A DNA stretch of 64,000 nucleotides from Pedobacter sp. (GCA_038918115.1 JBCLAL010000008.1:73072-137071); one strand, 5' to 3'. Positions 1,122-45,265 are shown, counted from the stretch's first letter. Notes: generated from the letters alone by a model not told the origin. Program-made: numbers and translations.

Positions 1122-1484
1122 TCAACCCCGTTTGGCGCCCAGTAAAGATAGTGCTCCCACAATGAGACCCGTAATTCCCATGGCAATAAACGTGTTTCTG
1201 GCTGCTGGGTCCCTGGAGATTGCCGGTGCAGCCGCTATGCCGAGGGCCATTACCCCTGAGGCCAGGTCTATGATTGCATGTGTTTTATAGGATATACATT
1301 TAATTGCACCCCATTTTGCATCGGTAAGCAGGCTGGTACCCAGTTCGGCAATTGCGAAGGAGCGGCAAACCGTGGCAGCCTTGCTGTCCTTTTCAAATCC
1401 CATTAGCTTAGGTGCCAGCAATACGGCCGGAATATAACTGTAATCGGCATAAACATGCATCTCTTTGGTGATTCCTTTTATCAT
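1122..1484 (-). CDS. Small membrane protein (SPW-repeat-like hypothetical)
   Basis: 120 aa ORF with several hydrophobic segments and an H..xDY / H..xD internal repeat pattern; the family call is from memory only. Confidence 0.7.
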   Translation of the reverse strand: MIKGITKEMHVYADYSYIPAVLLAPKLMGFEKDSKAATVCRSFAIAELGTSLLTDAKWGAIKCISYKTHAIIDLASGVMALGIAAAPAISRDPAARNTFIAMGITGLIVGALSLLGAKRG

Positions 1485-1638
1485 GATCGTAGGGTTTAGT
1501 TATTGGATGATGGTGAAAGGGTACAAAATCAATGCCCATGGTAGCGGCTGGTGGGCAGCGCCTCAAAATCAAGTATATTCTGCAGCACATGGGGTAATTA
1601 CCTGTTAGTAAATGGGTAACCGGCACGGTCGAAACTGA

Positions 1639-1663
1639 AAACAGGAACGCTGGCATCTTGTTT
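1639..1663 (+). promoter_or_regulatory. AAAC-N15-TTGT motif, copy 1 (candidate alternative-sigma promoter)
   Basis: AAAC AGGAACGCTGGCATC TTGTTT, ending 31 nt before ATG 1695. Confidence 0.6.
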
Positions 1664-1694
1664 AGTAGCAGGACTTACCCTTTTAGCTTACGTT

Positions 1695-3179
1695 ATGCGC
1701 CGAATTAAACTTGTGTACCTGCTCTCTTTTCTCCTCATGTATGGCGCTATGCCCTTGTGTGCACAGCAGCTTGGCGGAGCCGCCAAGGAAGATTTCAAGA
1801 TCCGTATTGTTGCCGACAAGCTAAGTGATCCTTGGGAAATCAGCTATGGTCCGGATGGGCAGCTCTGGGTGACGGAGTCTAAGAACTATAAGGTTTGGCG
1901 GATAGATCCGGCAAGTGGAAAGCGGCAAGCGCTGCTGGATCTCAGCGAAGCGCGGGAGTTCCCGAGATATGATCAAATTGATGATAAAGAAGATGGTGGC
2001 AAACCCTGGCCGCAGGGTGGATTAATAGGCATGGCGCTGCACCCGGATTTGTTGAAAGGCAAACCTTATGTTTACCTAAGCTATATATACCGGTTTAAAA
2101 ATGCTGATGCGGTAGGTAACGGTTCAGAACCCGCATTTAAAGGTTACCATTTTGTAGGGCGACTGGTGCGCTATACCTATAGCCAGAAAGACCAGAAGCT
2201 GGCAGATCCATTGGTGCTCTGCGACAGCATACCGGCAAGCAGCGATCATAATGGCGGGAGACTGTTAATTGCTCCGGTGCAGGGTAAAAATTATCTGTAC
2301 TATAGTATTGGCGACATGGGAGCCGGGCAATTTGATAATGGTGGCCGGCAGAATAAGGCACAGGACAAGAACAGCTATGAGGGCAAGGTGCTGCGTCTCA
2401 ATACCGAACCGGACAAGGATGCGGATCCATTTGACCGCTGGATCCCCAACGACAATCCTTTTAATGGAAGCCGGCAAAACGCGGTATGGTCGCTTGGCCA
2501 CCGTAACCCGCAGGGACTTACCTATGCGCTTGTAAACGGTAAGGGTATGTTGTACAGCGTGGAGCATGGTCCTTATGGGGATGATGAGGTGAACCTGATT
2601 GAAAAGGGGCGGAACTATGGCCACCCGCTCATCATTGGCTATAATGACGGGAACTATGACGGTAAGGCTGCCTCGGTATCTGATCACCAGGAGATCCCTG
2701 GAAAGTGGCACACCAGTTATCCCCTGATTGTTTCAGAATCGGAAAATGCAAAGGCGATGGGCGCCGCATTCCGCGGACCCGAGTTCAGCTTTTATCCCAT
2801 TCCCGCAGATACGCTTGATCAGCTGTTCAATAATAAAGTTCAGGGTAAAGATCAGGAGTGGCAGGCATATGGGCCATCGAGCATTCAGCTATACACCAGC
2901 GATGGGATACCCGGATGGAAAAATTCTTTATTGATCACTACACTGAAAGGATCATCGCTGCTTCGGTTGAAGCTGGATGCGAGTGGAAAGATTTTAGATA
3001 AAGTACCCACGGTATATGTTAAAGGGAAAGTGCGGTATCGTGATCTGGCGATTTCTGCGGATGGTAAGAAAATCTATTTATCTGCGGATAATGCTGCGGT
3101 GAGTTCAGGGCCCTCTAAAGAGAATCCAGCGGAGGTTTCTTACAAGGGGTGTATACTCGAGTTAACGTACACGAGGTAG
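1695..3179 (+). CDS. PQQ-dependent sugar dehydrogenase (glucose/sorbosone dehydrogenase family), secreted
   Basis: Signal peptide; LSDPWEISYGPDG, GGLIGMALHP, HNGGRL, SLGHRNPQG, EHGP..DDEVN and RYRDLAIS motifs of the soluble PQQ beta-propeller dehydrogenases. Confidence 0.9.
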   Translation: MRRIKLVYLLSFLLMYGAMPLCAQQLGGAAKEDFKIRIVADKLSDPWEISYGPDGQLWVTESKNYKVWRIDPASGKRQALLDLSEAREFPRYDQIDDKEDGGKPWPQGGLIGMALHPDLLKGKPYVYLSYIYRFKNADAVGNGSEPAFKGYHFVGRLVRYTYSQKDQKLADPLVLCDSIPASSDHNGGRLLIAPVQGKNYLYYSIGDMGAGQFDNGGRQNKAQDKNSYEGKVLRLNTEPDKDADPFDRWIPNDNPFNGSRQNAVWSLGHRNPQGLTYALVNGKGMLYSVEHGPYGDDEVNLIEKGRNYGHPLIIGYNDGNYDGKAASVSDHQEIPGKWHTSYPLIVSESENAKAMGAAFRGPEFSFYPIPADTLDQLFNNKVQGKDQEWQAYGPSSIQLYTSDGIPGWKNSLLITTLKGSSLLRLKLDASGKILDKVPTVYVKGKVRYRDLAISADGKKIYLSADNAAVSSGPSKENPAEVSYKGCILELTYTR

Positions 3180-3252
3180 GGTTCTCTTATATTTAAATTT
3201 TTTTTTCAAAAAAATTACCACCATGTAATTTGTTCTGCCATACTTCTTAATA

Positions 3253-3267
3253 CTCGGAATGACCGAG
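3253..3267. promoter_or_regulatory. CTCGG-N5-CCGAG palindrome, candidate XRE operator (second copy 3753..3767)
   Basis: Perfect 5-5-5 inverted repeat, identical in both units, 17-18 nt upstream of each XRE start codon. Confidence 0.5.
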
Positions 3268-3285
3268 GATTAAAAATTAAATATT

Positions 3286-3534
3286 ATGTTAAAAATTTAT
3301 CCAGCCATCAAGTTCTTGAGATTGAAAAATGGTTTAACCCAACAACAAGTTGCAAACAAACTGAACTGTACAGTACCCGCCTACAGTAAATTGGAAACTG
3401 GCACAACGGAAATAACGCATGGCCTTTTAAAGCAGTTGTCGGTAATTTACGACATGAGTATTCGTGAGATCTATCAGCTTGCATTAGACCTCTCAAAAGA
3501 CGAGGATTACGAAAAGCCAGGTGATAAGAATTAG
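3286..3534 (+). CDS. XRE-family helix-turn-helix regulator, copy 1 (short C-terminus)
   Basis: IKFLRLKNGLTQQQVANKLNCTVPAYSKLETG is a classic HTH_3 pattern. Confidence 0.85.
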   Translation: MLKIYPAIKFLRLKNGLTQQQVANKLNCTVPAYSKLETGTTEITHGLLKQLSVIYDMSIREIYQLALDLSKDEDYEKPGDKN

Positions 3535-3583
3535 AGCATCATTGAAGGTATGAAGAAAGCATCTTGGTAAACTATGAAGTACT

Positions 3584-3641
3584 ATCGCCCTGGTTAGTGA
3601 AGGCATTCCAAATCGCCTAAACTAATCCGGCGATTTTTTTT
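3584..3641 (+). terminator. Long two-tier hairpin followed by a T-run, copy 1
   Basis: ATCGCCCTGGTTAG-tga-AGGC-loop-GCCT-aaa-CTAATCCGGCGAT followed by TTTTTTT. Confidence 0.65.
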
Positions 3642-3784
3642 AAGATGATCTTAAGATGTTTTTTAACGTACGCGTGTTAGGGTTCTCAAATTTTTAAAAT
3701 TTTTTTAAAAAAAATTACCACCATGTATTTTGTTCTGCCATACTTCTTAATACTCGGAATGACCGAGATTAAAAATCAAACATT

Positions 3785-4123
3785 ATGTTAGAAATTTATC
3801 CATCCATTAAGTACTTGAGATTGAAAAATGGTTTAACCCAACAACAGGTTGCAGACAAACTGAGCTGTTCAGTGCCTGCTTACAGTAAATTGGAAACTGG
3901 CGCAACAGACGTGACGCATACCCGTTTAACGCAGTTGTCGGCACTTTACAACATGATGATCTATCAGATCTATCAGCATGCAGAGCCAGTAGACAACTCA
4001 CTGGAGGAAACAAACAAAAAGCTTGCTAATAAAGTTCAAGAGCAGCAAGCAACCATTTCAGCGTTGCAGCGGAAGATCATTGAACTTTATGAAGAGAAGC
4101 ACCGTGATAAAGCAGCGTCATAA
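3785..4123 (+). CDS. XRE-family helix-turn-helix regulator, copy 2, with C-terminal coiled coil
   Basis: IKYLRLKNGLTQQQVADKLSCSVPAYSKLETG, then the heptad-like LANKVQEQQATISALQRKIIELYEE. Confidence 0.88.
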   Translation: MLEIYPSIKYLRLKNGLTQQQVADKLSCSVPAYSKLETGATDVTHTRLTQLSALYNMMIYQIYQHAEPVDNSLEETNKKLANKVQEQQATISALQRKIIELYEEKHRDKAAS

Positions 4124-4157
4124 TTAGATTTATACCAGGTCTTTATCATTAATCAAT

Positions 4158-4214
4158 ATCGCCCGGGTTAGTAGAGGCATTTCAAACAGCCTAAGCTAAT
4201 CCGGGCGATTTTTT
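4158..4214 (+). terminator. Long two-tier hairpin followed by a T-run, copy 2
   Basis: ATCGCCCGGGTTAG / CTAATCCGGGCGAT 14-bp stem with one G-T pair, inner AGGC/GCCT stem, T-run; sits between convergent genes. Confidence 0.7.
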
Positions 4215-4225
4215 CTAGACAATCT

Positions 4226-4570
4226 TTAAAACAACTCCTGCATGTCTCGGTCTGCAGTGTTAATTTTCTTTAGGAATTCATCGAATCCTGGTCCTTTCTG
4301 TTCACTGTACATACCGTATGCATCAGAGATGAAGGAAATACGCTCCTGATTATCTTTTAAGATATAGATCACGGCGTTATCTCCGGGATCTGAATGGCCT
4401 TCGAAACGGTATGTTTTAATAATAGTTAAATCTTCGGGACTATAGGTTTGGTCGATCTTATTACCTTTCATATGTCCGTCTTCCGTCATTGTCAATTCAT
4501 TATCGTAGCCCTTCTGCCTTAACTTTTCTAAAATCTGACTCAGGGTGTTCATTTCTGCTGGTTGTTCCAT
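4226..4570 (-). CDS. Conserved Bacteroidota hypothetical protein
   Basis: 114 aa with TLSQILEKLRQKGY and YRFEGHSDPGDNAVIY...DAYG motifs, recalled as a widespread uncharacterised family; function unknown. Confidence 0.75.
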   Translation of the reverse strand: MEQPAEMNTLSQILEKLRQKGYDNELTMTEDGHMKGNKIDQTYSPEDLTIIKTYRFEGHSDPGDNAVIYILKDNQERISFISDAYGMYSEQKGPGFDEFLKKINTADRDMQELF

Positions 4571-4593
4571 CTTTTCTTCGGTTTATGTAAATA

Positions 4594-4618
4594 AAACAAC
4601 AGCTGTTCTAAATAGTTT
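4594..4618 (-). promoter_or_regulatory. AAAC-N15-TTGT motif, copy 2
   Basis: Minus strand AAAC TATTTAGAACAGCTG TTGTTT, ending 23 nt before ATG 4570. Confidence 0.6.
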
Positions 4619-4634
4619 TTTAGGAAAGGGGCAC

Positions 4635-4667
4635 AAAAAAACAGCTGCCGTTTAGCGGCAGCTGTTT
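4635..4667 (-). terminator. Intrinsic terminator of metK
   Basis: AAACAGCTGCCG-TTTAG-CGGCAGCTGTTT perfect 12-bp stem with a minus-strand T-run. Confidence 0.85.
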
Positions 4668-4693
4668 ATATTAGTTAGAAAGTTGTTTTCTGG

Positions 4694-5944
4694 TTATAAT
4701 CCAAAAGCCGCTTTTACCTGGTCAACATAGTCCAGTTTCTCCCAAGTAAAAAGTTCCACCGTAACTACCTTTTCTTCACCATTAGGCGTTCTGAAGGTTT
4801 TGGTTACGGTTTCTGGTTTTCTGCCCATATGTCCATAAGCAGCAGTTTCGCTATAGATTGGATTTCTAAGTTTAAGTCTTTGCTCGATGAAATAAGGGCG
4901 CATATCGAAGATGCCTTCAACAATTTTCGCGATTTCACCATCAGTCTTAGATACCTTTCCAGTACCATAAGTATTGATGTAGATACCCATAGGTTTGGCA
5001 ACGCCAATGGCATAACTTACCTGTACCAGAATTTCATCAGCCACACCTGCGGCAACCAGGTTTTTAGCGATATGGCGAGTTGCGTATGCTGCGGAGCGGT
5101 CTACCTTGCTTGGGTCTTTACCTGAAAAAGCCCCACCACCGTGCGCGCCTTTACCGCCGTAAGTGTCTACAATGATTTTTCTTCCCGTTAAGCCGGTATC
5201 TCCGTGTGGCCCACCAATTACAAACTTGCCTGTAGGGTTGATGTGATATTGGATCTGATCATTAAAGAGGTGTGCGTACTGCGGATTCTTGCTGATAATT
5301 CTCGGAATGAGAATATTCACCAGGTCTTGCTTGATCTTATCCAGCATTGCTGCCTCTGCATCAAAATCATCGTGCTGTGTAGAAATCACGATGGCATCAA
5401 TTCTAACAGGGCGATTGTTATCATCATATTCCAGGGTAACCTGTGATTTTGCATCCGGTCGCAAATAAGTGATCTCGTCCATTTCGCGTCTAAGCAGTGC
5501 CAGCTCTTGTAAAAGCTTATGGGAAAGATCCAGTGCTAATGGCATGAAATCCTCTGTTTCATTGCTAGCATAACCGAACATCATACCCTGATCTCCAGCA
5601 CCCTGATCCTCCTTATTGGATCTGTCTACGCCTTGATTAATGTCTTGAGATTGTTCATGAATTGCCGAAAGAATTCCGCAGGAGTTTGCCTCAAACATGT
5701 ATTCGCTCTTGGTATAACCTATTTTTCTGATGACGTCGCGCGCTATCTGCTGTACGTCCAGGTAGGTTTTTGATTTTACCTCGCCAGCTAAAATAACCTG
5801 ACCTGTGGTAACAAGGGTTTCGCAGGCGACCTTAGAATCAGAATCGAATGCAAGAAAGTTATCAATGAGTGCGTCTGATATTTGATCTGCTATTTTATCA
5901 GGATGACCTTCAGAAACAGATTCTGATGTAAATAAGTATGACAT
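4694..5944 (-). CDS. metK: S-adenosylmethionine synthetase
   Basis: [35 protein letters not shown] signatures. Confidence 0.99.
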
Positions 5945-37649: not shown

Positions 37650-37670
37650 TTCCAGAAAGTATTAATAAAC

Positions 37671-37698
37671 AAAAAGCCGGGCTAATGCCCGGCTTTTT
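37671..37698. terminator. Bidirectional terminator
   Basis: AAAAAGCCGGGC-TAAT-GCCCGGCTTTTT. Confidence 0.9.
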
Positions 37699-37720
37699 AT
37701 ACGTATAGGCTATGCGCCTT

Positions 37721-38257
37721 TTATGATGCTTGTTTTACAAATTGAATTTCGCCTATGATCTTCACCTCGTCGCCCAGCATTACACCGCCGGTTTCAAGGG
37801 TTGCATTATAGGTAAGGCCGAAATCACCACGCTTTAGTTTTCCTGTTAAAGTAAAACCTGCTTTAGTATTTCCCCATGGGTCTACCGCGGTTCCGCCAAA
37901 TTCTACGTCTAATATGATCGGCTGCGTCACACCTTTAAGGGTGATGTTGCCTGCAACTTTATAGTCATCACCATCGCGGGTGAATGAAGTTGATTCGAAA
38001 GTCAAGGTTGGGTGCGTATCCGCATCAAAGAAGTCCCCGGTTACAAGGTGCTTGTCACGGTCGGAGTTACCTGTATCCACGGAACTGATATCTGCGCTGA
38101 ACGTTGCTTTTGCATTTTCAAAATTGTTATCAGACTCACTTTCAAGTGTAGCTGAAAAATTTCTGAAACGTCCGGTTACCGTAGTAATCATGAGGTGTTT
38201 AACCTTAAACTCCAGTTCGCTGTGTGTTGGATCTAATGTCCATTGTGTTGTTGCCAT
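37721..38257 (-). CDS. YceI family lipid/polyisoprenoid-binding protein
   Basis: W.LDPTHS..EF.VKHLMI..V.G.F, RD.HL...DFFD, G.ITLKGVT. Confidence 0.94.
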   Translation of the reverse strand: MATTQWTLDPTHSELEFKVKHLMITTVTGRFRNFSATLESESDNNFENAKATFSADISSVDTGNSDRDKHLVTGDFFDADTHPTLTFESTSFTRDGDDYKVAGNITLKGVTQPIILDVEFGGTAVDPWGNTKAGFTLTGKLKRGDFGLTYNATLETGGVMLGDEVKIIGEIQFVKQAS

Positions 38258-38350
38258 GGTTGTTCGATTTAGATTATATCGTTTTGATAGAACAAAGGTA
38301 CCAACACACTCGTTTGCAAGCGTTGATGTATGTTAATAAATTAACATTGC

Positions 38351-38941
38351 TCAGACTTTGAAGTGTTTATGTGCTAAGTCTTTACGTACACGGCTTAATG
38401 ATTCCGGGGTAATGCCAAGGTAAGAAGCGATCATCCACTGTGGTACCCTTAAGGTCAGGTTTGGATATAACTTAACGAAATCGACATAACGCTCCTCCGC
38501 AGTGGCTGCCAGCAGCAGATTAATCCGGCGCTGCATAAAGCGAATTGCATTATTAAGCATCGTTGTATTCAGCAGGTTAAATTCCGGTGCATGTGCCGCG
38601 GCTGTGCAGAAAAAATCCTTAGGAATAATCAATGCTGTTGTGGGCTCAATAGCATCCATATTGAAATCAGACGCTTCATTGTTCAGCAGTCCGTTCCGGT
38701 CGGAAATCCACCAGCCTTCCGGTGCAAACTGGATGATGTGTGTTTTGCCCTTCTCATCTACCGAGTAGCTGCGCATCAATCCGTCAAGAATGAAGTAGGT
38801 CCTTGTGCTGGTTTCACCCTGGGAGAGTACCAGTTCGTTTTTCAAGAAGGTTGTTGTTTTTAGATGACTTGCAACAAGGTCGAACTGTTCGTCGGTAATC
38901 GACATCCTTTGCTGCAGGTAGGCTTTGAATTTATCAAGCAT
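38351..38941 (-). CDS. Crp/Fnr family transcriptional regulator
   Basis: cNMP-binding region (L.QGE...YFILDGLMRSY) and C-terminal PQWMIASYLGITPESLSR HTH. Confidence 0.93.
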   Translation of the reverse strand: MLDKFKAYLQQRMSITDEQFDLVASHLKTTTFLKNELVLSQGETSTRTYFILDGLMRSYSVDEKGKTHIIQFAPEGWWISDRNGLLNNEASDFNMDAIEPTTALIIPKDFFCTAAAHAPEFNLLNTTMLNNAIRFMQRRINLLLAATAEERYVDFVKLYPNLTLRVPQWMIASYLGITPESLSRVRKDLAHKHFKV

Positions 38942-38952
38942 ATAGTTGAAAT

Positions 38953-39117
38953 CTATTTAGATTTTGGATCTATATTGCTAAAATCTACACTGCACTTATT
39001 GCATCCCGTAGCACAGCCGCCATCCTTGCCCGGCTTAAGCGAACGAAAAATGATGCGGCCGATATAGAATACCGCCGCGGCAAATAATAAAGCTACTAAT
39101 AAGGTCTGCACATCCAT
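38953..39117 (-). CDS. FeoB-associated-type Cys-rich small membrane protein
   Basis: 54 aa from ATG 39117: TM helix then GGCATGCNKC. The ORF-track extension overlaps the upstream gene. Confidence 0.75.
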   Translation of the reverse strand: MDVQTLLVALLFAAAVFYIGRIIFRSLKPGKDGGCATGCNKCSVDFSNIDPKSK

Positions 39118-39166: not shown

Positions 39167-40354
39167 TTATGGTTCCATGAGACCGACGGTTCCACCTACC
39201 CAATCAAAGTCCTTATTGTAACGCACACCGATCATCTTTCCACGACTTAACCTCGCCAGGTTGATGGCCAGTATCGGTTCTTCATTGTCTGGCCAGAGAT
39301 ACATCAGCCGCAATTCTGCCTTCACACCGCCTGTTGGTGATTCTACGATAGGCTCATAGGTCACTTTCTCCTGCAACAGCCAATTCTCCGGGTCTTCGAT
39401 CTTTTCGATATCGGCCTTGGTCACATCAATGATCACGCCCATACCGGCGAAAGAAAACAGCGGCTTCAGCACGTAATTCTCGAGGTCCGGTGGCAGGGTT
39501 TTTAGCTCATGCAGAAAGAAGCTCTCGGGAACATACTTGCTCTCTAAATATGGCATGGTGTACTTACTAACCCGGTAAAACCAGTTCGGATGGGTCATCC
39601 ACTCTACATCAATGATCTCCCGGGGATCAAAACACTCCTTAAAAAGACTGAAGTCGTCCTTAACCTCATCAAAAATCAGGCGGTTATAGATCCGCTTGAT
39701 CCTTACATTCACACCATTTTCGCGATAACAGATGTGGTTGTCCTCCCTGAAAATATCCTCGATGCCCACGATCTTTATACCCAGGTGTTTGGCCGTGATG
39801 TAAAAATCGATCGCCGTTTTCTGTTTGTGTACATCAAGATCCATCAGCACCACCTGCTTTGGCGGATGGTCGCCTACAATCATCTTCCGCAGCAACTCGA
39901 TATAAGAACTGTCGTTTAAGCCATTGAAGTAGGGGGTAAGCTTAGGATCCAGCTCATAAACTTCCTTGTAGAGCGCTGCAAGGTGCATCTGAAAACCATA
40001 GAGGGAAGGAAATCCCTGCATTTCAATAAGTTTCGGTGCCAGCTTGCCCTCAGCATCTTTAGTAATGCCGAAGTCGAGGGTAAGAAAATGCGGGTGACTA
40101 TTTTCAAATGGAACCTCCCACTCAAAAGGAATGGCCTTTTTAGTTAAGGTCTTAAATCCGGGACGCCTGATGATGTTTACAATTTCTTCACCTGCTTTAA
40201 TCAATTCGTCTCGCAGATCATTTGGTATAAACACAGGTGTCTCCGCAAGTCTGAACTCAATAGGAGGGAAGCCCTCGTCTGCTTTGTTCAGAAATGCTTC
40301 GTATTTCGCAGCGGTAAAGCCAGCGTTGAAACGCTCCCGGTAGGTGTTAATCAT
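39167..40354 (-). CDS. Circularly permuted ATP-grasp-type ligase (glutathione/GSP synthetase-like)
   Basis: LDFG...KLIEMQGFP, IYNRL, YVLKPLFSFAG.GV, WLLQEKV, ELRL elements typical of circularly permuted ATP-grasp amidoligases; family recognised by eye. Confidence 0.65.
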   Translation of the reverse strand: MINTYRERFNAGFTAAKYEAFLNKADEGFPPIEFRLAETPVFIPNDLRDELIKAGEEIVNIIRRPGFKTLTKKAIPFEWEVPFENSHPHFLTLDFGITKDAEGKLAPKLIEMQGFPSLYGFQMHLAALYKEVYELDPKLTPYFNGLNDSSYIELLRKMIVGDHPPKQVVLMDLDVHKQKTAIDFYITAKHLGIKIVGIEDIFREDNHICYRENGVNVRIKRIYNRLIFDEVKDDFSLFKECFDPREIIDVEWMTHPNWFYRVSKYTMPYLESKYVPESFFLHELKTLPPDLENYVLKPLFSFAGMGVIIDVTKADIEKIEDPENWLLQEKVTYEPIVESPTGGVKAELRLMYLWPDNEEPILAINLARLSRGKMIGVRYNKDFDWVGGTVGLMEP

Positions 40355-40356
40355 AG

Positions 40357-41190
40357 TTATGCTTCTTGTAAGGTGTTTGCAACGACACTGGAGATGAAGT
40401 TCGGCAGAATCACCTGCTGTGTCAGGGAAATGCGCTCAGGATCCTCCACACTATCCAGCATGTCATAATACTTTTCTTCACCGTGATTGTCGATGATGGA
40501 CTTCTTCTTATCTTCTTTAAGCAAGTGCATGCGCATACCGGTTGGGTCTGCTTCAGGGTGAAACTGGGTACCCAGAATTTCATCCGTAAAACGGATCGCC
40601 ATAATGCAGCGCTCCAGGTCAACATTCGGTCTTTCCTTTTCTAACGCGAGTATACTCGCTCCAAAACTTTCAAAAGCAGCCTCATCGGGTTCTATCACCT
40701 GCCAATCGCGACTGTCTACCGAATAGAAAGGATTGGTCAAGCCGCTAAAGGCTGGTTCTTGCTCCCCTGCTTCGGTAAGCGTGATCGGAAAAATGCCAAA
40801 GGCATTAGACTTACGCTCTGTCACGTTGCCAAGCTTAAATTTGCGGCAGGCCAGCTGAAAGGAATGACAGATTAGAAAAACAAACTTCTTCTCTGCTTCA
40901 TTGCTGGCATTGTGCTGGTGTATCTGTTCCAGAAGATCAAAAAATCTGTTCTCCCATTCCTGGCCTTCCCCATCATACGGACTTCCCGGGCCGCCTGTAG
41001 AAATGTACAGGTGGTAATTCAGGTCTGGTAATTCAGCTTTCCGTCTCAAGTCAAAGATCTCGAGTGAAAACGCTATACCATGATCCTCCTGGTACTTGCC
41101 CAGTATTTCTATAATCCCCCGCATGCCCTGGTTGGGCGAGCCATTATTCATATCTATAATGGCAACTTTCATCTTCTTATTATTATCCAT
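40357..41190 (-). CDS. Class I glutamine amidotransferase-like protein
   Basis: TGGPGSP oxyanion loop, ICHSFQ nucleophile elbow, QFHPEAD (Cys-His-Glu triad). Confidence 0.88.
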   Translation of the reverse strand: MDNNKKMKVAIIDMNNGSPNQGMRGIIEILGKYQEDHGIAFSLEIFDLRRKAELPDLNYHLYISTGGPGSPYDGEGQEWENRFFDLLEQIHQHNASNEAEKKFVFLICHSFQLACRKFKLGNVTERKSNAFGIFPITLTEAGEQEPAFSGLTNPFYSVDSRDWQVIEPDEAAFESFGASILALEKERPNVDLERCIMAIRFTDEILGTQFHPEADPTGMRMHLLKEDKKKSIIDNHGEEKYYDMLDSVEDPERISLTQQVILPNFISSVVANTLQEA

Positions 41191-41192
41191 TT

Positions 41193-42299
41193 TTACTGTT
41201 TCGCGCCTATAAGCGTCTGGCTGGTTATAAAGTCTACAACCGATTCCAGCTTGCCGGTCTGTTCAAAGACTGCTAATTGCCGGTCTGCACCTGTTCCGTT
41301 TTGCAGCATCTTATGCACGTAGTTGATGTCATCCCGGCAACCCAGTTCATCAACAACATCATCCACAAAGTCAAGCAGTTCCAGGATCAGGTTGCGGCAG
41401 TTAACCTCCATTTCCTTGCCAAAGTCTATCAGGTTGCCGTCAATCCCGTATCTCGCCGCACGCCATTTGTTCTCGTTGATCAGCGCCCGGGAGTAGTTTA
41501 TGAAAGACATATTCCGCAAGCGTAGCTGGTATAACTTCGCACAAAGGGCCTGAAAAAGCGCTGTAAGCGCCATTGTCTCATCGATCAGCATCGGACAATC
41601 ACATATCCTGAACTCAATGGTCTGGAAAAAAGGGTGTACCCTGATGTCCCACCAGATCTTCTTCGCATTATCAATACAGTTCGTCTTGATGAGTAATTTG
41701 ACATAACTATCATAATCCTCTATGCTGTTGAAGATGTCAGGAATTCCCGTACGGGGAAACTTATCAAAGATCTTGGTCCGGAAGGACTTGTATCCGGTAT
41801 TCCTGGATTCCCAGAAAGGCGAATTCGTAGATAATGCAAATACGTGCGGCAGAAAGTAGCGCACCTGGTTGGCAATATGTACCGCAAGTTCCCTGGATTG
41901 GAAACCCACATGCACATGCAGTCCAAAGATCAGGTTTGAACGCGCAGCTTCCTGAAGCTCATTAACAATTTCATTATAACGCGGATGTTCTGTAATTAAT
42001 TGTTTCTCCCAGTGTGAAAAAGGGTGGGTGCCTGAGGCACCTATCCTTAATCCCTGTTCGCCGGCAAGCTGCGATACGGTGTACCGCAGCTGCGAGATTT
42101 CTTTCCGCGCCTGTGTCGTGTCGGTGCAGATGCCCGTTCCAACTTCCACCACAGCCTGGTGCATTTCTGCCTTTACCTGGTCCTTATGGATCTTTTGCGC
42201 AGCTTCAACAATTTTCTGGTCATGCGAAGTGAGCTCCCGGGTAACCGGATCAACAACCATGTACTCTTCTTCGATACCAAGTGTAAACTCGTTTTTCAT
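41193..42299 (-). CDS. Carboxylate-amine ligase, YbdK/GCS2 family (glutamine synthetase fold)
   Basis: TLGIEEEY, VEV.TG, GTHPF, FGLHVHVG, ALS.NSPFW, WWDIR.HP...TIEFRICD. Confidence 0.93.
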   Translation of the reverse strand: MKNEFTLGIEEEYMVVDPVTRELTSHDQKIVEAAQKIHKDQVKAEMHQAVVEVGTGICTDTTQARKEISQLRYTVSQLAGEQGLRIGASGTHPFSHWEKQLITEHPRYNEIVNELQEAARSNLIFGLHVHVGFQSRELAVHIANQVRYFLPHVFALSTNSPFWESRNTGYKSFRTKIFDKFPRTGIPDIFNSIEDYDSYVKLLIKTNCIDNAKKIWWDIRVHPFFQTIEFRICDCPMLIDETMALTALFQALCAKLYQLRLRNMSFINYSRALINENKWRAARYGIDGNLIDFGKEMEVNCRNLILELLDFVDDVVDELGCRDDINYVHKMLQNGTGADRQLAVFEQTGKLESVVDFITSQTLIGAKQ

Positions 42300-42318
42300 G
42301 ACATCCGCTTAATAGCCG

Positions 42319-43602
42319 TTATTTTTTACTGCTGCTTTCTTTTTTTGCTTTTGGCGCGGCTGCTTTAGCTGGGGCAGACTTAGCCGGCTTGGCCGCTTTC
42401 TCTGCCTTAGGCTGCGCTGCGCCTGCTTTCGCTGCTGGTGCCTTCTTTGCTGCTGGTGCTGCATCTTCAGCTTTAGAATCTTCGCCGGCTTTAGCACCTT
42501 GCTCCGCTTTAGTGGCAGATTTTGGCTTGCTTGCCTTTGTCGCTTTGGCAGTGCCGCTGGTCTTAGCCGAAGCTTTTTTCTGAGGTTCCAATTCTACCGG
42601 TGCAGCCAGCTCTTCTGTTACCGGAATTTCACCCGCTGCTTCAATCTTAATTTTCGAACCTGCTTTTACCGATCCTTTCACATATTCACCCCAGGTCAGG
42701 TTATCCTGATTTGGCTTGTGTGCCCTGGCACGTTCAATCGCATACAGCGCCGAATGTTCAACAACCCAGTTGAAGTTCTCTTCCCCAACGCTGGTCAGCT
42801 CCGCATCAGGTGCCGGATTGCAGAAGTCGATCGCATAAGGTATACCATCGCGTACCGCAAATTCAACGGTGTTGAAATCGTAACCCAATGACTGGTTCAG
42901 CTTAATCACATAATCGTGTATGGTTTGCAGCAATTCTTCGCTTGAAGGTCCTTTATCTACGGCATAGCGCAAGTGGAAAGGATTGTTTGGCTCATACTGC
43001 ATAATCCGCACATACTTACCGCCAATGCAGTAGCAGCGATAATATTCTTCAAACTTAATCTCTTCCTGCAGCATCATCACCAGCTGTCCGGTTTCCTTGT
43101 GCTTTTCAAAGAATTCTTCCTTGTCGCTGATCTTGTAAACGTCTTTCCAACCCCCGCCATCAAAAGGCTTCATATAGGCCGGGAAGCCCGTATATTCAAA
43201 AATAGCATCCCAGTCGAGCGGATATGCAAGGTTGCTGAAAGACTCGTCGCTTGTATCGGTCGGAAGCTCCCTGGAAGGGATCAGCGTTGTCTTTGGTACC
43301 GGGATACCAAGCTTCACAGCAAGCGCATTGTTGAAGAACTTCTCGTCAGCGCTCCACCAGAAAGGATTATTGATTACGGCTGTTCCGGTGATTGCAGCAT
43401 TTTTCATTGCCGAACGGTAAAAGGGAACACCCTGGGAAATACGGTCGAGGATCACGGCATAATCCAGTGGCTCAGCCTGTAATACCTTGTCAAGGCGCAC
43501 AAACTCGGCCTCAAACTCGCCCGCTGCCAGCTCATTAACACGTTTTACAAAAGCTTCAGGAAAAGATCGCTCCTGGCCAAATAAGATACCAATTTTTTTC
43601 AT
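42319..43602 (-). CDS. RimK-like ATP-grasp ligase with an Ala/Lys/Pro-rich C-terminal tail
   Basis: VINNP...DEK, P.PKT, YMKPFDGGGWKDV, LQEEI, VEFAV.DG.PY.IDF.NP; the last about 115 aa are low complexity. Confidence 0.85.
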   Translation of the reverse strand: MKKIGILFGQERSFPEAFVKRVNELAAGEFEAEFVRLDKVLQAEPLDYAVILDRISQGVPFYRSAMKNAAITGTAVINNPFWWSADEKFFNNALAVKLGIPVPKTTLIPSRELPTDTSDESFSNLAYPLDWDAIFEYTGFPAYMKPFDGGGWKDVYKISDKEEFFEKHKETGQLVMMLQEEIKFEEYYRCYCIGGKYVRIMQYEPNNPFHLRYAVDKGPSSEELLQTIHDYVIKLNQSLGYDFNTVEFAVRDGIPYAIDFCNPAPDAELTSVGEENFNWVVEHSALYAIERARAHKPNQDNLTWGEYVKGSVKAGSKIKIEAAGEIPVTEELAAPVELEPQKKASAKTSGTAKATKASKPKSATKAEQGAKAGEDSKAEDAAPAAKKAPAAKAGAAQPKAEKAAKPAKSAPAKAAAPKAKKESSSKK

Positions 43603-43619
43603 CGTCTATGAATTAGTTG

Positions 43620-44324
43620 TTATAGTTTAGATAGATAGTCCGGTAACATCTCCCGCCAGATCGGCCAGTCGTGGTCGGCGTCGGGCCGGATGTCAAGCCA
43701 ATGGGAGATACCCTTCTTATGTAAGATTTCTGATAATTGTTCATTGTAGGGCCTGCAGATGTCACGGTCGGAAGTGCCAAGCACGATCTTCATGTTCCAG
43801 AGCTCCGGGTTATTCGAATCCGGCAGGTAATCTACCGGGTTATTAAAGTACACATCTTCATTATAAAAGCCGTCCAGCTGCCCGCTGATATCAAAGGCGC
43901 CACTCAGGCTGAACATATGCGACACCAGCCATGGATAGCGAAAGGCAAAATTCGCAGCATGATAACCACCAAAGCTGCAACCTGAGGTAATTACCCGATG
44001 GTGACCAGTCTCGTGCTGTGCACGGGGCACCAGTTCTTCCAGCAGCATCCGGTCATACCAGGTATGATTCTTAATCCGCTGCTCGGGAGACACCGCTTTG
44101 TTGTAAAAACTCAGGCTGTCAACGCCATCCGGACAATAGACTTTGACTTTCCCGGAATTGATGAAATACTGTATGCTTTCGATAAGTTTAAAGTCTTTGT
44201 TCTCAAAGTAGCGGCCCTGACTGGTAGGAAATAGAAGAAGCGGGTAGCCGCCGTAGCCAAAGGTCAGCATGTCGATGTCCATACTCAAGTTTGGACTGTA
44301 CCATTTGATGTATTCCTCCTGCAT
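43620..44324 (-). CDS. Alpha/beta-hydrolase esterase 1
   Basis: GCSFG nucleophile and DHDW catalytic His; LFPTSQG oxyanion region. Confidence 0.88.
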   Translation of the reverse strand: MQEEYIKWYSPNLSMDIDMLTFGYGGYPLLLFPTSQGRYFENKDFKLIESIQYFINSGKVKVYCPDGVDSLSFYNKAVSPEQRIKNHTWYDRMLLEELVPRAQHETGHHRVITSGCSFGGYHAANFAFRYPWLVSHMFSLSGAFDISGQLDGFYNEDVYFNNPVDYLPDSNNPELWNMKIVLGTSDRDICRPYNEQLSEILHKKGISHWLDIRPDADHDWPIWREMLPDYLSKL

Positions 44325-44364
44325 GAAAGTAATTTAGATAATAAGATACGAAGAACTACTCTTT

Positions 44365-44388
44365 AACAAGTATCCTATTCTTTTGTTG
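44365..44388 (-). promoter_or_regulatory. (C)AAC-N15-TTGT motif, copy 3, for the ligase operon
   Basis: Minus strand CAAC AAAAGAATAGGATAC TTGTT, ending 40 nt before ATG 44324. Confidence 0.55.
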
Positions 44389-44418
44389 CTAAAATCAGTT
44401 GATATTTAAAAAAATAGG

Positions 44419-44441
44419 AAACATTTTACGGGGAGCCTTTG
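44419..44441 (+). promoter_or_regulatory. AAAC-N15-TTGT motif, copy 4, for the divergent esterase
   Basis: AAAC ATTTTACGGGAGCCT TTGT, ending 14 nt before ATG 44456. Confidence 0.55.
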
Positions 44442-44455
44442 TAAATAGATAAACC

Positions 44456-45265
44456 ATGAAGATCGCCGAGCTTAAAATCACTACGCACACCTTGCAATCC
44501 CATTGGCTGAAAAGGCCTGTGGAACTCATTGTTTATGCGCCGGTGGGCATTCCGGCAAATATCCCGATGAACCTGCTTTTGCTTAATGACGGACAGGATG
44601 CAGAAGGCTTGCAACTGGAGGAAGCACTGCGCGACCTTTATGCCAACCAACGTATTGATCCGGTGGTGCTGGTGGGCATTAAGTGCTCAGCAGAACGCAT
44701 ACAGGAATATGGTGTTGCCGGCCGACCTGATTTTCAGAACCGGGGTAGCAAAGCTGACCTTTATAATGAGTTTATCGTAACGGAGCTGCTGCCGCAGTTG
44801 GAAAAACTGCTGAAGATCAAGCTTCAGGGCAAGAAAGGCTTCGTGGGTTGTTCCCTTGGCGGCTTAAGCGCTCTGGATATCTGCTGGCGCAATGATAAGA
44901 TATTTGATGTGGTTGGTGCTTTTTCCGCTTCTTTCTGGTGGCGCAAAAGAGACCTTGAAGATGGCTACACGCCCGATGACAGGATCATGCACCAGGTGAT
45001 CAGGGAAAGGGGGGATAAACCGGAGCTCCGGTTCTGGCTGATGACCGGCACGGAGGATGAAACTGCCGACCGTGATGGTAACTTCATCATCGACTCTATA
45101 GACGACACCATCGACATCATTAAGTCCCTGCTGGATAAAGGATATTCACGTCCGCATGATGTTTTCTATTATGAGATGGTCGGTGGAAAACATGAAGTTG
45201 ACACCTGGGCCAAAGCGATGCCGGCCTTTATCTGTTGGGCATTCCCAAGAACGGCAGTCTTTTAG
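44456..45265 (+). CDS. Alpha/beta-hydrolase esterase 2 (Fes/putative esterase family)
   Basis: LLLNDGQD, GCSLGG nucleophile, SASFWW, G..DE, GKHE...W. Confidence 0.88.
   Translation: MKIAELKITTHTLQSHWLKRPVELIVYAPVGIPANIPMNLLLLNDGQDAEGLQLEEALRDLYANQRIDPVVLVGIKCSAERIQEYGVAGRPDFQNRGSKADLYNEFIVTELLPQLEKLLKIKLQGKKGFVGCSLGGLSALDICWRNDKIFDVVGAFSASFWWRKRDLEDGYTPDDRIMHQVIRERGDKPELRFWLMTGTEDETADRDGNFIIDSIDDTIDIIKSLLDKGYSRPHDVFYYEMVGGKHEVDTWAKAMPAFICWAFPRTAVF

Follow-up and report, generated by a model that had tools for sequence, protein, structure and literature searches.

A conserved three-ligase and hydrolase gene cluster in Bacteroidota: a candidate pathway for the synthesis and turnover of a small oligo-amide

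The Puu pathway of E. coli works by gamma-glutamylation, and its enzymes PuuA and PuuD pair a ligase of the glutamine-synthetase fold with a hydrolase of the glutamine-amidotransferase (GATase) fold. Neighbourhoods that combine amidoligases with peptidases were reportedly predicted by comparative genomics in 2009, in a survey said to be by Iyer, Abhiman, Burroughs and Aravind (Mol Biosyst 5:1636). Operons linking ATP-grasp and COOH-NH2 ligases, the latter of the glutamine-synthetase fold, with GATase-like thiol peptidases are discussed, with peptide-derived metabolites as their proposed products, in individual sections of two papers (PMC4431377, section 7; PMC2588565, section 6). Among ligases with assigned activities, YgiC and YjfC are given as peptide–spermidine ligases where PMC12568646 draws on its ref. 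48, and Cp1B is the E-64 ligase (PMC12568646). The system considered here is a six-gene cluster at positions 39167–45265 of a 64,000-nucleotide stretch of Pedobacter sp. DNA (GCA_038918115.1, JBCLAL010000008.1:73072-137071), the whole of which is called the window. Its operon encodes an esterase (G1), an ATP-grasp ligase (G2), a YbdK/GCS2 carboxylate–amine ligase (G3), a class I GATase-fold protein (G4) and a second ATP-grasp ligase (G5); a further esterase (G6) is divergent. The cluster is real and strongly conserved, an uncharacterised system of three ligases and a variant within the known ATP-dependent amidoligase/hydrolase operons. With a probability of about 0.6, it represents in this genome a pathway of two modules, spread over the phylum, by which a small cytoplasmic oligo-amide is made and turned over independently of the ribosome.

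As far as the sections cited describe them, the amidoligase–peptidase neighbourhoods of the Aravind group follow the same logic as this cluster. The characterised systems that come closest are the E. coli glutathionylspermidine synthetase/amidase GspSA with YgiC/YjfC, the RimK/LysX ligases, and glutathione synthesis, the last of which is taken up with G3 and G5 below. G5 shares the fold of GspSA and YgiC/YjfC (Foldseek E 1e-12 to 1e-11) and has sub-threshold GSP_synth matches, and a ligase teamed with a Cys-based hydrolase resembles the two halves of GspSA, synthetase and amidase. G5 nevertheless scores too low for PF03738, its hydrolase partner is a distinct protein of the GATase fold instead of a CHAP domain, and the host genome lacks glutathione synthesis. 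RimK, LysX and ArgX supply the nearest structures to G2 and weak profile matches. G2 falls far below the family cut-offs, however (TIGR00768, RimK: 32.9 versus 143.4 bits; TIGR02144, LysX: 26.6 versus 275.6 bits), and no LysW-like or S6-like acceptor is present among open reading frames of at least 25 aa in the cluster and its adjoining genes, to which the search was confined without extension to the whole genome. A literature search returned neither a product assigned to the cluster nor a characterisation of the Bacteroidota YbdK family; the 2009 amidoligase survey lay outside that search. The thiohistidine-dipeptide ATP-grasp system (PMC13674229) was considered and set aside as a different, NHISS-linked system.

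Gene order, modules and co-inheritance

The genes of the operon lie head to tail on one strand, separated by 17, 19, 2 and 2 nt, and G6 is transcribed away from them across an intergenic region of 131 nt (table 1). An earlier note on this DNA had described six genes in this order with gaps of 2–19 nt, and the coordinates of the reading frames bear it out. Base composition is even over the region, which therefore gives no sign of recent import. The sole unique feature of the window's copy is the unusual length of the basic tail of G2; otherwise the locus is typical.

Table 1. Features of the ligase–hydrolase locus, with positions counted from the first nucleotide of the window.
Feature	Position	Strand	Remarks
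G1, esterase 1 (short PF00756-type serine hydrolase), first gene of the operon	43620-44324	-	234 aa
G2, LysX/ArgX/RimK-type ATP-grasp ligase	42319-43602	-	427 aa; catalytic part 42658-43602
G2 C-terminal Lys/Ala/Pro-rich tail, ~112 residues	42319-42657	-	predicted disordered
G3, YbdK/GCS2 carboxylate–amine ligase (glutamine-synthetase-fold amidoligase)	41193-42299	-	368 aa
G4, class I glutamine-amidotransferase-fold protein, Cys-His-Glu triad	40357-41190	-	277 aa
G5, glutathione-synthetase/glutathionylspermidine-synthetase-type ATP-grasp ligase, without Pfam family	39167-40354	-	395 aa
G6, esterase 2 (PF00756, siderophore-esterase/esterase D-like serine hydrolase), cytoplasmic, divergent	44456-45265	+	269 aa
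Imperfect palindrome AACAA-N13-TTGTT, G1/G6 intergenic region	44365-44387		single site read on both strands
Small FeoB-associated Cys-rich membrane protein, immediately 3' of G5	38953-39117	-	54 aa; PF12669, 33 bits; likely start MDVQ...

Gene neighbourhoods were compared over about 19 kb around 60 G5 homologues and in the best 80 loci of a G2-seeded scan with matches in more than 595 genomes, all 80 of which are from Bacteroidota. Within this phylum the neighbourhood is conserved: the full order esterase-G2-G3-G4-G5 recurs in many families. The genes fall into two modules. G3, G2 and a divergent esterase of the G6 type are the constant unit, found in almost all of the best 80 G2-seeded loci, and constitute the core. 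The add-on pair G5-G4 occurs in roughly half of the same 80 loci and is separable, standing alone in several. The hydrolase of this pair is exchangeable. A Peptidase_M29 gene occupies the position of G4 in six loci, and G5 is paired with an Amidohydro_3 gene in ten. In one genus (L070, L085 and L086, ~1200-5900) an ATP-grasp_4 gene, an M17 leucyl aminopeptidase and a third, longer esterase (~373 aa) lie directly beyond G1, so that the cluster there comprises four ligases. The M29, M17 and Amidohydro_3 partners are all peptide and amide hydrolases. In two genomes of one family a sodium/solute symporter carries a G5-type ligase as its C-terminal part, in a fusion protein of 867-876 aa, and in a third the symporter and G5 are separate neighbours 18 nt apart (L055 7570-10173, L056 7546-10176 and L057 8989-11568). 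This association points to a small imported substrate.

The ligases are also inherited together. The same 301 high-quality Bacteroidota genomes (142 genera) were searched with G5, G2 and G3. Homologues of G5 occur in 74 genomes and 49 genera, and the set as a whole is carried by about a quarter to a third of the sample (74-89 genomes, 49-58 genera), including common soil, freshwater and marine families. G5 and G2 occur together in 72 genomes, G5 alone in two, G2 alone in 17 and neither in 210 (Fisher p 4e-50). The corresponding counts are 75, 1, 14 and 211 for G3 and G2 (p 4e-55), and 70, 4, 6 and 221 for G5 and G3 (p 5e-56); these p-values ignore shared ancestry, and the pattern spans dozens of genera. 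Many loci at which G5 stands alone come from genomes in which G2 and G3 are found on different contigs; the link between the ligases is therefore independent of adjacency. That G5 is almost never found without G2, whereas G2 lacks G5 in 17 genomes, fits an action of G5 on the product of G2 and G3. The proposal that the genes form one functional set is upheld, since they are adjacent in many families and the ligases are co-inherited even where unlinked.

Families and catalytic residues of the six proteins

Profile and Foldseek checks support all six family labels of the earlier note, although 'RimK-like' for G2 and 'circularly permuted ATP-grasp-type' for G5 hold only at the level of the fold. 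The recognisable catalytic motifs, which the note took to be intact, are indeed kept in G1, G3, G4 and G6. G3 is, by its sequence, a clear member of the YbdK/GCS2 carboxylate–amine ligase family. It scores 208.5 bits against PF04107 (cut-off 21) and 540.9 bits against NF010039 (cut-off 371), matches E. coli YbdK (1r8g) with E 4.7e-49 in a sequence search of the PDB, and has readable GIEEEY and HVHVG motifs. Its identity is 92% within the genus, comparable to the 92-95% of the neighbouring gene TypA, and 46-74% among orthologue-grade matches across the phylum.

G2 represents a highly conserved ATP-grasp family of its own. In its AlphaFold2 (AF2) model the core is predicted with a local distance difference test score (pLDDT) of ~90, and residues 315–427 fall below 50. 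Foldseek places LysX/ArgX first, with template-modelling (TM) scores of 0.75-0.77, followed by a RimK-domain protein at 0.72; D-Ala-D-Ala ligases come only after these. The ATP-grasp fold of G2 is supported by this range (TM 0.72-0.77 to LysX/ArgX and 5i47). An alignment of 32 homologues contains 87 invariant columns, among them K145, G149-G151, D259 and N262, which supply a conserved Lys, a Gly-rich loop and a D/E-x-N metal site, and identity over the phylum is 50-68%. Within the genus G2 is 72% identical, and its close orthologues in the phylum as a whole reach 50-73%; G2 and G3 are both much better conserved than G5, G4 and G1 (35-50% across the phylum). The tail of G2, rich in Lys, Ala and Pro, is histone H1-like. 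Basic tails of varying length, shorter than that of the window's copy, recur in nine of the 32 homologues from several families, a distribution that reflects repeated gain or patchy retention. Such a tail might serve to anchor the enzyme to a polyanion, to the nucleoid or to the ribosome. In a run X2 contig from a relative (95-99% identity), 43086 is followed directly by 43331, a skip of 244 nt inside G2; the shorter flank of this junction is only 44 nt long, and either a deletion variant or an artefact of assembly may account for it.

The presence of a GCS2 ligase beside a ligase of the glutathione-synthetase fold recalls glutathione biosynthesis, and G3 and G5 occur together in 70 of the 80 genomes that have either. 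Unlike that pathway, the cluster has a third ligase, G2, which is the most constant partner of G3, and G5 is only 12-16% identical to glutathione synthetases. The host genome, which is 99.99% complete, contains no match to GshA (PF04262), and its best GshB match (PF02955; 20.8 bits) is below cut-off. G3 is its only GCS2 gene. BshC of the bacillithiol route is present (435 bits), and no match to GST_N_3 (PF13417) was found in the genome. For these reasons YbdK is not topping up an ordinary glutathione pathway, and the candidate role of an ordinary glutathione supply was rejected. The alternative considered in the earlier note, that YbdK alone accounts for an ordinary gamma-Glu-Cys supply, does not apply to a genome whose glutathione route would lack both GshA and GshB. 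The same findings weaken the suggestion of a glutathione substitute. The role of low-molecular-weight thiol is probably already filled by bacillithiol, and a glutathione-substitute role for the cluster is unlikely.

G5 matches no Pfam or NCBIfam family at E<0.01. By gathering score it belongs to none of PF03738, PF14403 and PF04174; below threshold, GSP_synth is found in 14 of 35 homologues (best E 0.014) and CP_ATPgrasp_2 reaches 12.4 bits against 32. The AF2 model (pLDDT 85.9; predicted TM score, pTM, 0.87) has the whole-chain fold of the glutathione synthetase/glutathionylspermidine synthetase (GspS) type. Foldseek returns 33 PDB chains at E<0.001, with TM 0.5-0.65. The best matches (E 1e-14 to 1e-11) are to 3n6x, a putative GspS, to eukaryotic glutathione synthetase, to YgiC/YjfC and to GspS, and every one of the 33 is one of these, another glutathione synthetase, a homoglutathione synthetase or the E-64 ligase Cp1B. 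The sub-threshold GSP_synth and circularly permuted ATP-grasp matches agree with this assignment. Sequence-only PDB searches with G2, G4, G5 and G1 gave nothing usable. Taxon labels among the G5-like proteins include one Elusimicrobiota and one Chlorobiota. Two distant homologues, P0143 and P0178 (L172 8001-9737), one of them labelled Elusimicrobiota, carry an N-terminal extension of ~160-190 residues that starts with a signal-peptide-like hydrophobic stretch, an odd feature for an ATP-dependent ligase.

The partner of G5 is a GATase-fold protein with a complete set of catalytic residues. G4 scores 38 bits against PF00117 (cut-off 22.8), a domain found in all 26 homologues, and C108, H211 and E213 are invariant among them. 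Its NCBIfam matches are to stand-alone amidotransferase models. Peptidase C26 (PF07722) is matched at E<0.01 neither by G4 nor by any of 25 homologues, and five of 26 also match HTS (PF04204), the model of the MetA/HTS acyltransferases. On this evidence G4 could be a hydrolase, a glutaminase or an acyl transferase.

Both esterases lack signal peptides. G6 scores 83.2 bits against PF00756, its residues S133, D201 and H246 are invariant in homologues, and its PDB matches, to BES and IroE-like esterases, are weak. G1 scores 30.7 bits against the same model. Its GCS117FG elbow and H218 are kept in 17 of 19 homologues and both lost in two. In two genomes of one family (L047 12312-13025 and L054 12278-13003) the G1-type proteins lack the nucleophile Ser and the catalytic His and are likely pseudo-enzymes; the operon of this family also lacks G4.

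A putative oligo-amide pathway and its alternatives

The main steps of the proposed pathway can be outlined as follows. (i) G3 and G2 would each activate a carboxylate with ATP as an acyl phosphate and join it to an amine, forming one amide bond each. (ii) Together they would yield a product with two such bonds, such as a gamma-glutamyl-X dipeptide lengthened by a further residue. (iii) G5, where present, would add a third block, an amino acid or a polyamine-like amine, to a free carboxylate of this core product. (iv) G4, or the M29 or Amidohydro_3 enzyme that substitutes for it, would reverse or trim the bond made by G5; G4 and G5 may correspond, as separate proteins, to the amidase and synthetase halves that are joined in E. 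coli Gsp. (v) G6 and G1 are part of the core module and would most likely cleave the product itself, one of its ester or thioester derivatives, or a side product. The pathway is favoured by the nearest characterised folds of G5, all of which join the carboxylate of a peptide or acid to an amino acid or a polyamine. It is favoured also by the six assignments, which hold with their catalytic residues conserved, and by the tight spacing of the operon on one strand. Ribosome-independent synthesis and turnover, as the earlier note envisaged, fits the pairing of ligases with hydrolases; nothing in the analysis shows that the residues joined are glutamyl, as it also supposed.

Several points weigh against this pathway. 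The nearest folds of G2, those of LysX/ArgX and RimK, act on the C-terminal glutamate of proteins, and together with the basic tail they make a macromolecular acceptor possible. G4 matches amidotransferase models and not peptidase C26, lies 2 nt from G5 and could deliver ammonia to it. An amide pathway does not by itself account for two cytoplasmic esterases. The RNA support consists of two short metatranscriptome contigs; they do not show co-transcription of the operon, which is inferred from gene spacing. The statistics of co-inheritance leave shared ancestry out of account.

The first alternative concerns the add-on pair. G5 and G4 may be an ATP-dependent amidotransferase analogous to MurT/GatD, in which G4 acts as a glutaminase and feeds ammonia to G5 for amidation of a carboxylate of the G2/G3 product. 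The pathway would then end in a peptide amide, with no turnover role for G4, so that this is a variant of the oligo-amide pathway and not its rejection. The PF00117 and stand-alone amidotransferase matches of G4, its full Cys-His-Glu triad, the 2-nt spacing and the occurrence of the isolated pair in several loci are all consistent with it. Against this, the M29 and Amidohydro_3 enzymes that accompany G5 elsewhere cannot donate ammonia through a channel, and the MetA/HTS matches of five G4 homologues indicate that the fold does not fix the chemistry. An ammonia-donating role of G4 is judged improbable.

The second alternative places the chemistry on a protein or carrier peptide. G2 would extend a C-terminal or side-chain carboxylate, as RimK does on ribosomal protein S6 and LysX on LysW, with G3 and G5 adding units and G4, G1 and G6 serving as erasers. 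The structural matches of G2 speak for such a role, and its recurrent Lys-rich disordered tails could dock on an acidic or nucleic-acid-bound target. The unusual conservation of G2 and G3, the latter akin to TypA within the genus, points the same way. The operon and its immediate flanks, however, contain no small conserved gene for an acceptor, the only small neighbour being the membrane Cys-rich protein confined to one family. G5 occurs as a fusion with a solute symporter, aminopeptidase and amidohydrolase partners are typical of small substrates, and G2 is far below the cut-offs of the RimK and LysX families. Modification of a protein or carrier peptide is therefore unlikely. The more particular form of the idea, close to the protein tag listed among the options of the earlier note, has G2 and G3 (with G5) as writers and G4, G1 and G6 as erasers of a ribosome-independent, RimK/LysX-like C-terminal or side-chain peptide tag on a macromolecule in aerobic Bacteroidota. 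The symporter fusion and the aminopeptidase partners argue against it, and it keeps a low probability, being quite unlikely.

The weakest alternative, uptake followed by salvage or detoxification, in which an amine or amino-acid analogue taken up by the cell would be trapped through conjugation at the cost of ATP and later released by hydrolases, draws on the fusion and adjacency of symporter and G5, on a ligase–hydrolase pairing that recalls PuuA/PuuD and on two distant G5 homologues that adjoin a spermine-synthase-domain gene and a deacetylase-family gene. It is very unlikely: the cluster has no conserved oxidoreductase or aminotransferase, a catabolic route would hardly need three ligases that consume ATP, and three other distant homologues are without such neighbours. 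With two of five distant contexts suggestive of polyamine (Spermine_synth, Hist_deacetyl) and three uninformative, a polyamine substrate for G5 is only a lead.

Expression, flanking genes and significance

The earlier note connected the two arms of the locus with general stress through a shared motif, AAC-N15-TTGT. The two arms carry not two copies but the two strands of one palindrome. The motif occurs 12 times in the window against 11.6 expected, and none of 15 relatives has the palindrome in the corresponding intergenic region. As a stress promoter motif it was rejected, and the proposed link to general stress, resting on a motif at chance level and without conservation, falls with it; no evidence of a stress regulon was seen. 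A scan for promoters of the sigma-70 type found nothing above shuffled sequences. Several of the 15 relatives, mainly the closest Pedobacter loci, share a TAnnTTTG-type box 5' of G6, the ordinary primary-sigma element of Bacteroidota. Rfam models detected no riboswitch or leader between 37000 and 47500, and only terminator look-alikes at 37650-37750.

Two soil metatranscriptome contigs are 100% identical to the window, one at 39485-39758 inside G5 and the other at 44081-44337. The latter covers the 5' end of G1 and reaches 13 nt upstream of the start codon. These contigs are weak evidence that the operon is transcribed in nature.

Three genes follow G5 on the same strand (37721-39117), encoding the Cys-rich protein, a regulator of the Crp/Fnr family and YceI, an order kept in Pedobacter. 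The first strong terminator (14-bp stem, 37669-37700, minus strand) is found only after YceI. Local regulation by the Crp/Fnr protein is possible, as is a single long transcript of the whole unit. The small Cys-rich membrane protein is found 3' of G5 in Pedobacter and Mucilaginibacter loci only and is a conserved neighbour only in Sphingobacteriaceae; its membership in the system is uncertain.

The two core ligases evolve very slowly. Three ATP-dependent ligations and the faithful retention of their genes indicate that the product is probably a compound of general physiological importance. A cofactor-like peptide, a peptide–amine conjugate and a protective solute are the candidate types, and to our knowledge no such compound is known for the phylum Bacteroidota. 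Several large protein families now annotated as hypothetical, or only vaguely named, would gain a function together if the product were identified. Its identification would assign a function to the Bacteroidota YbdK subfamily (PRK13515), to a new ATP-grasp family and to a new GATase-fold family, and would do the same for a new GS/GspS-like family that is absent from Pfam.

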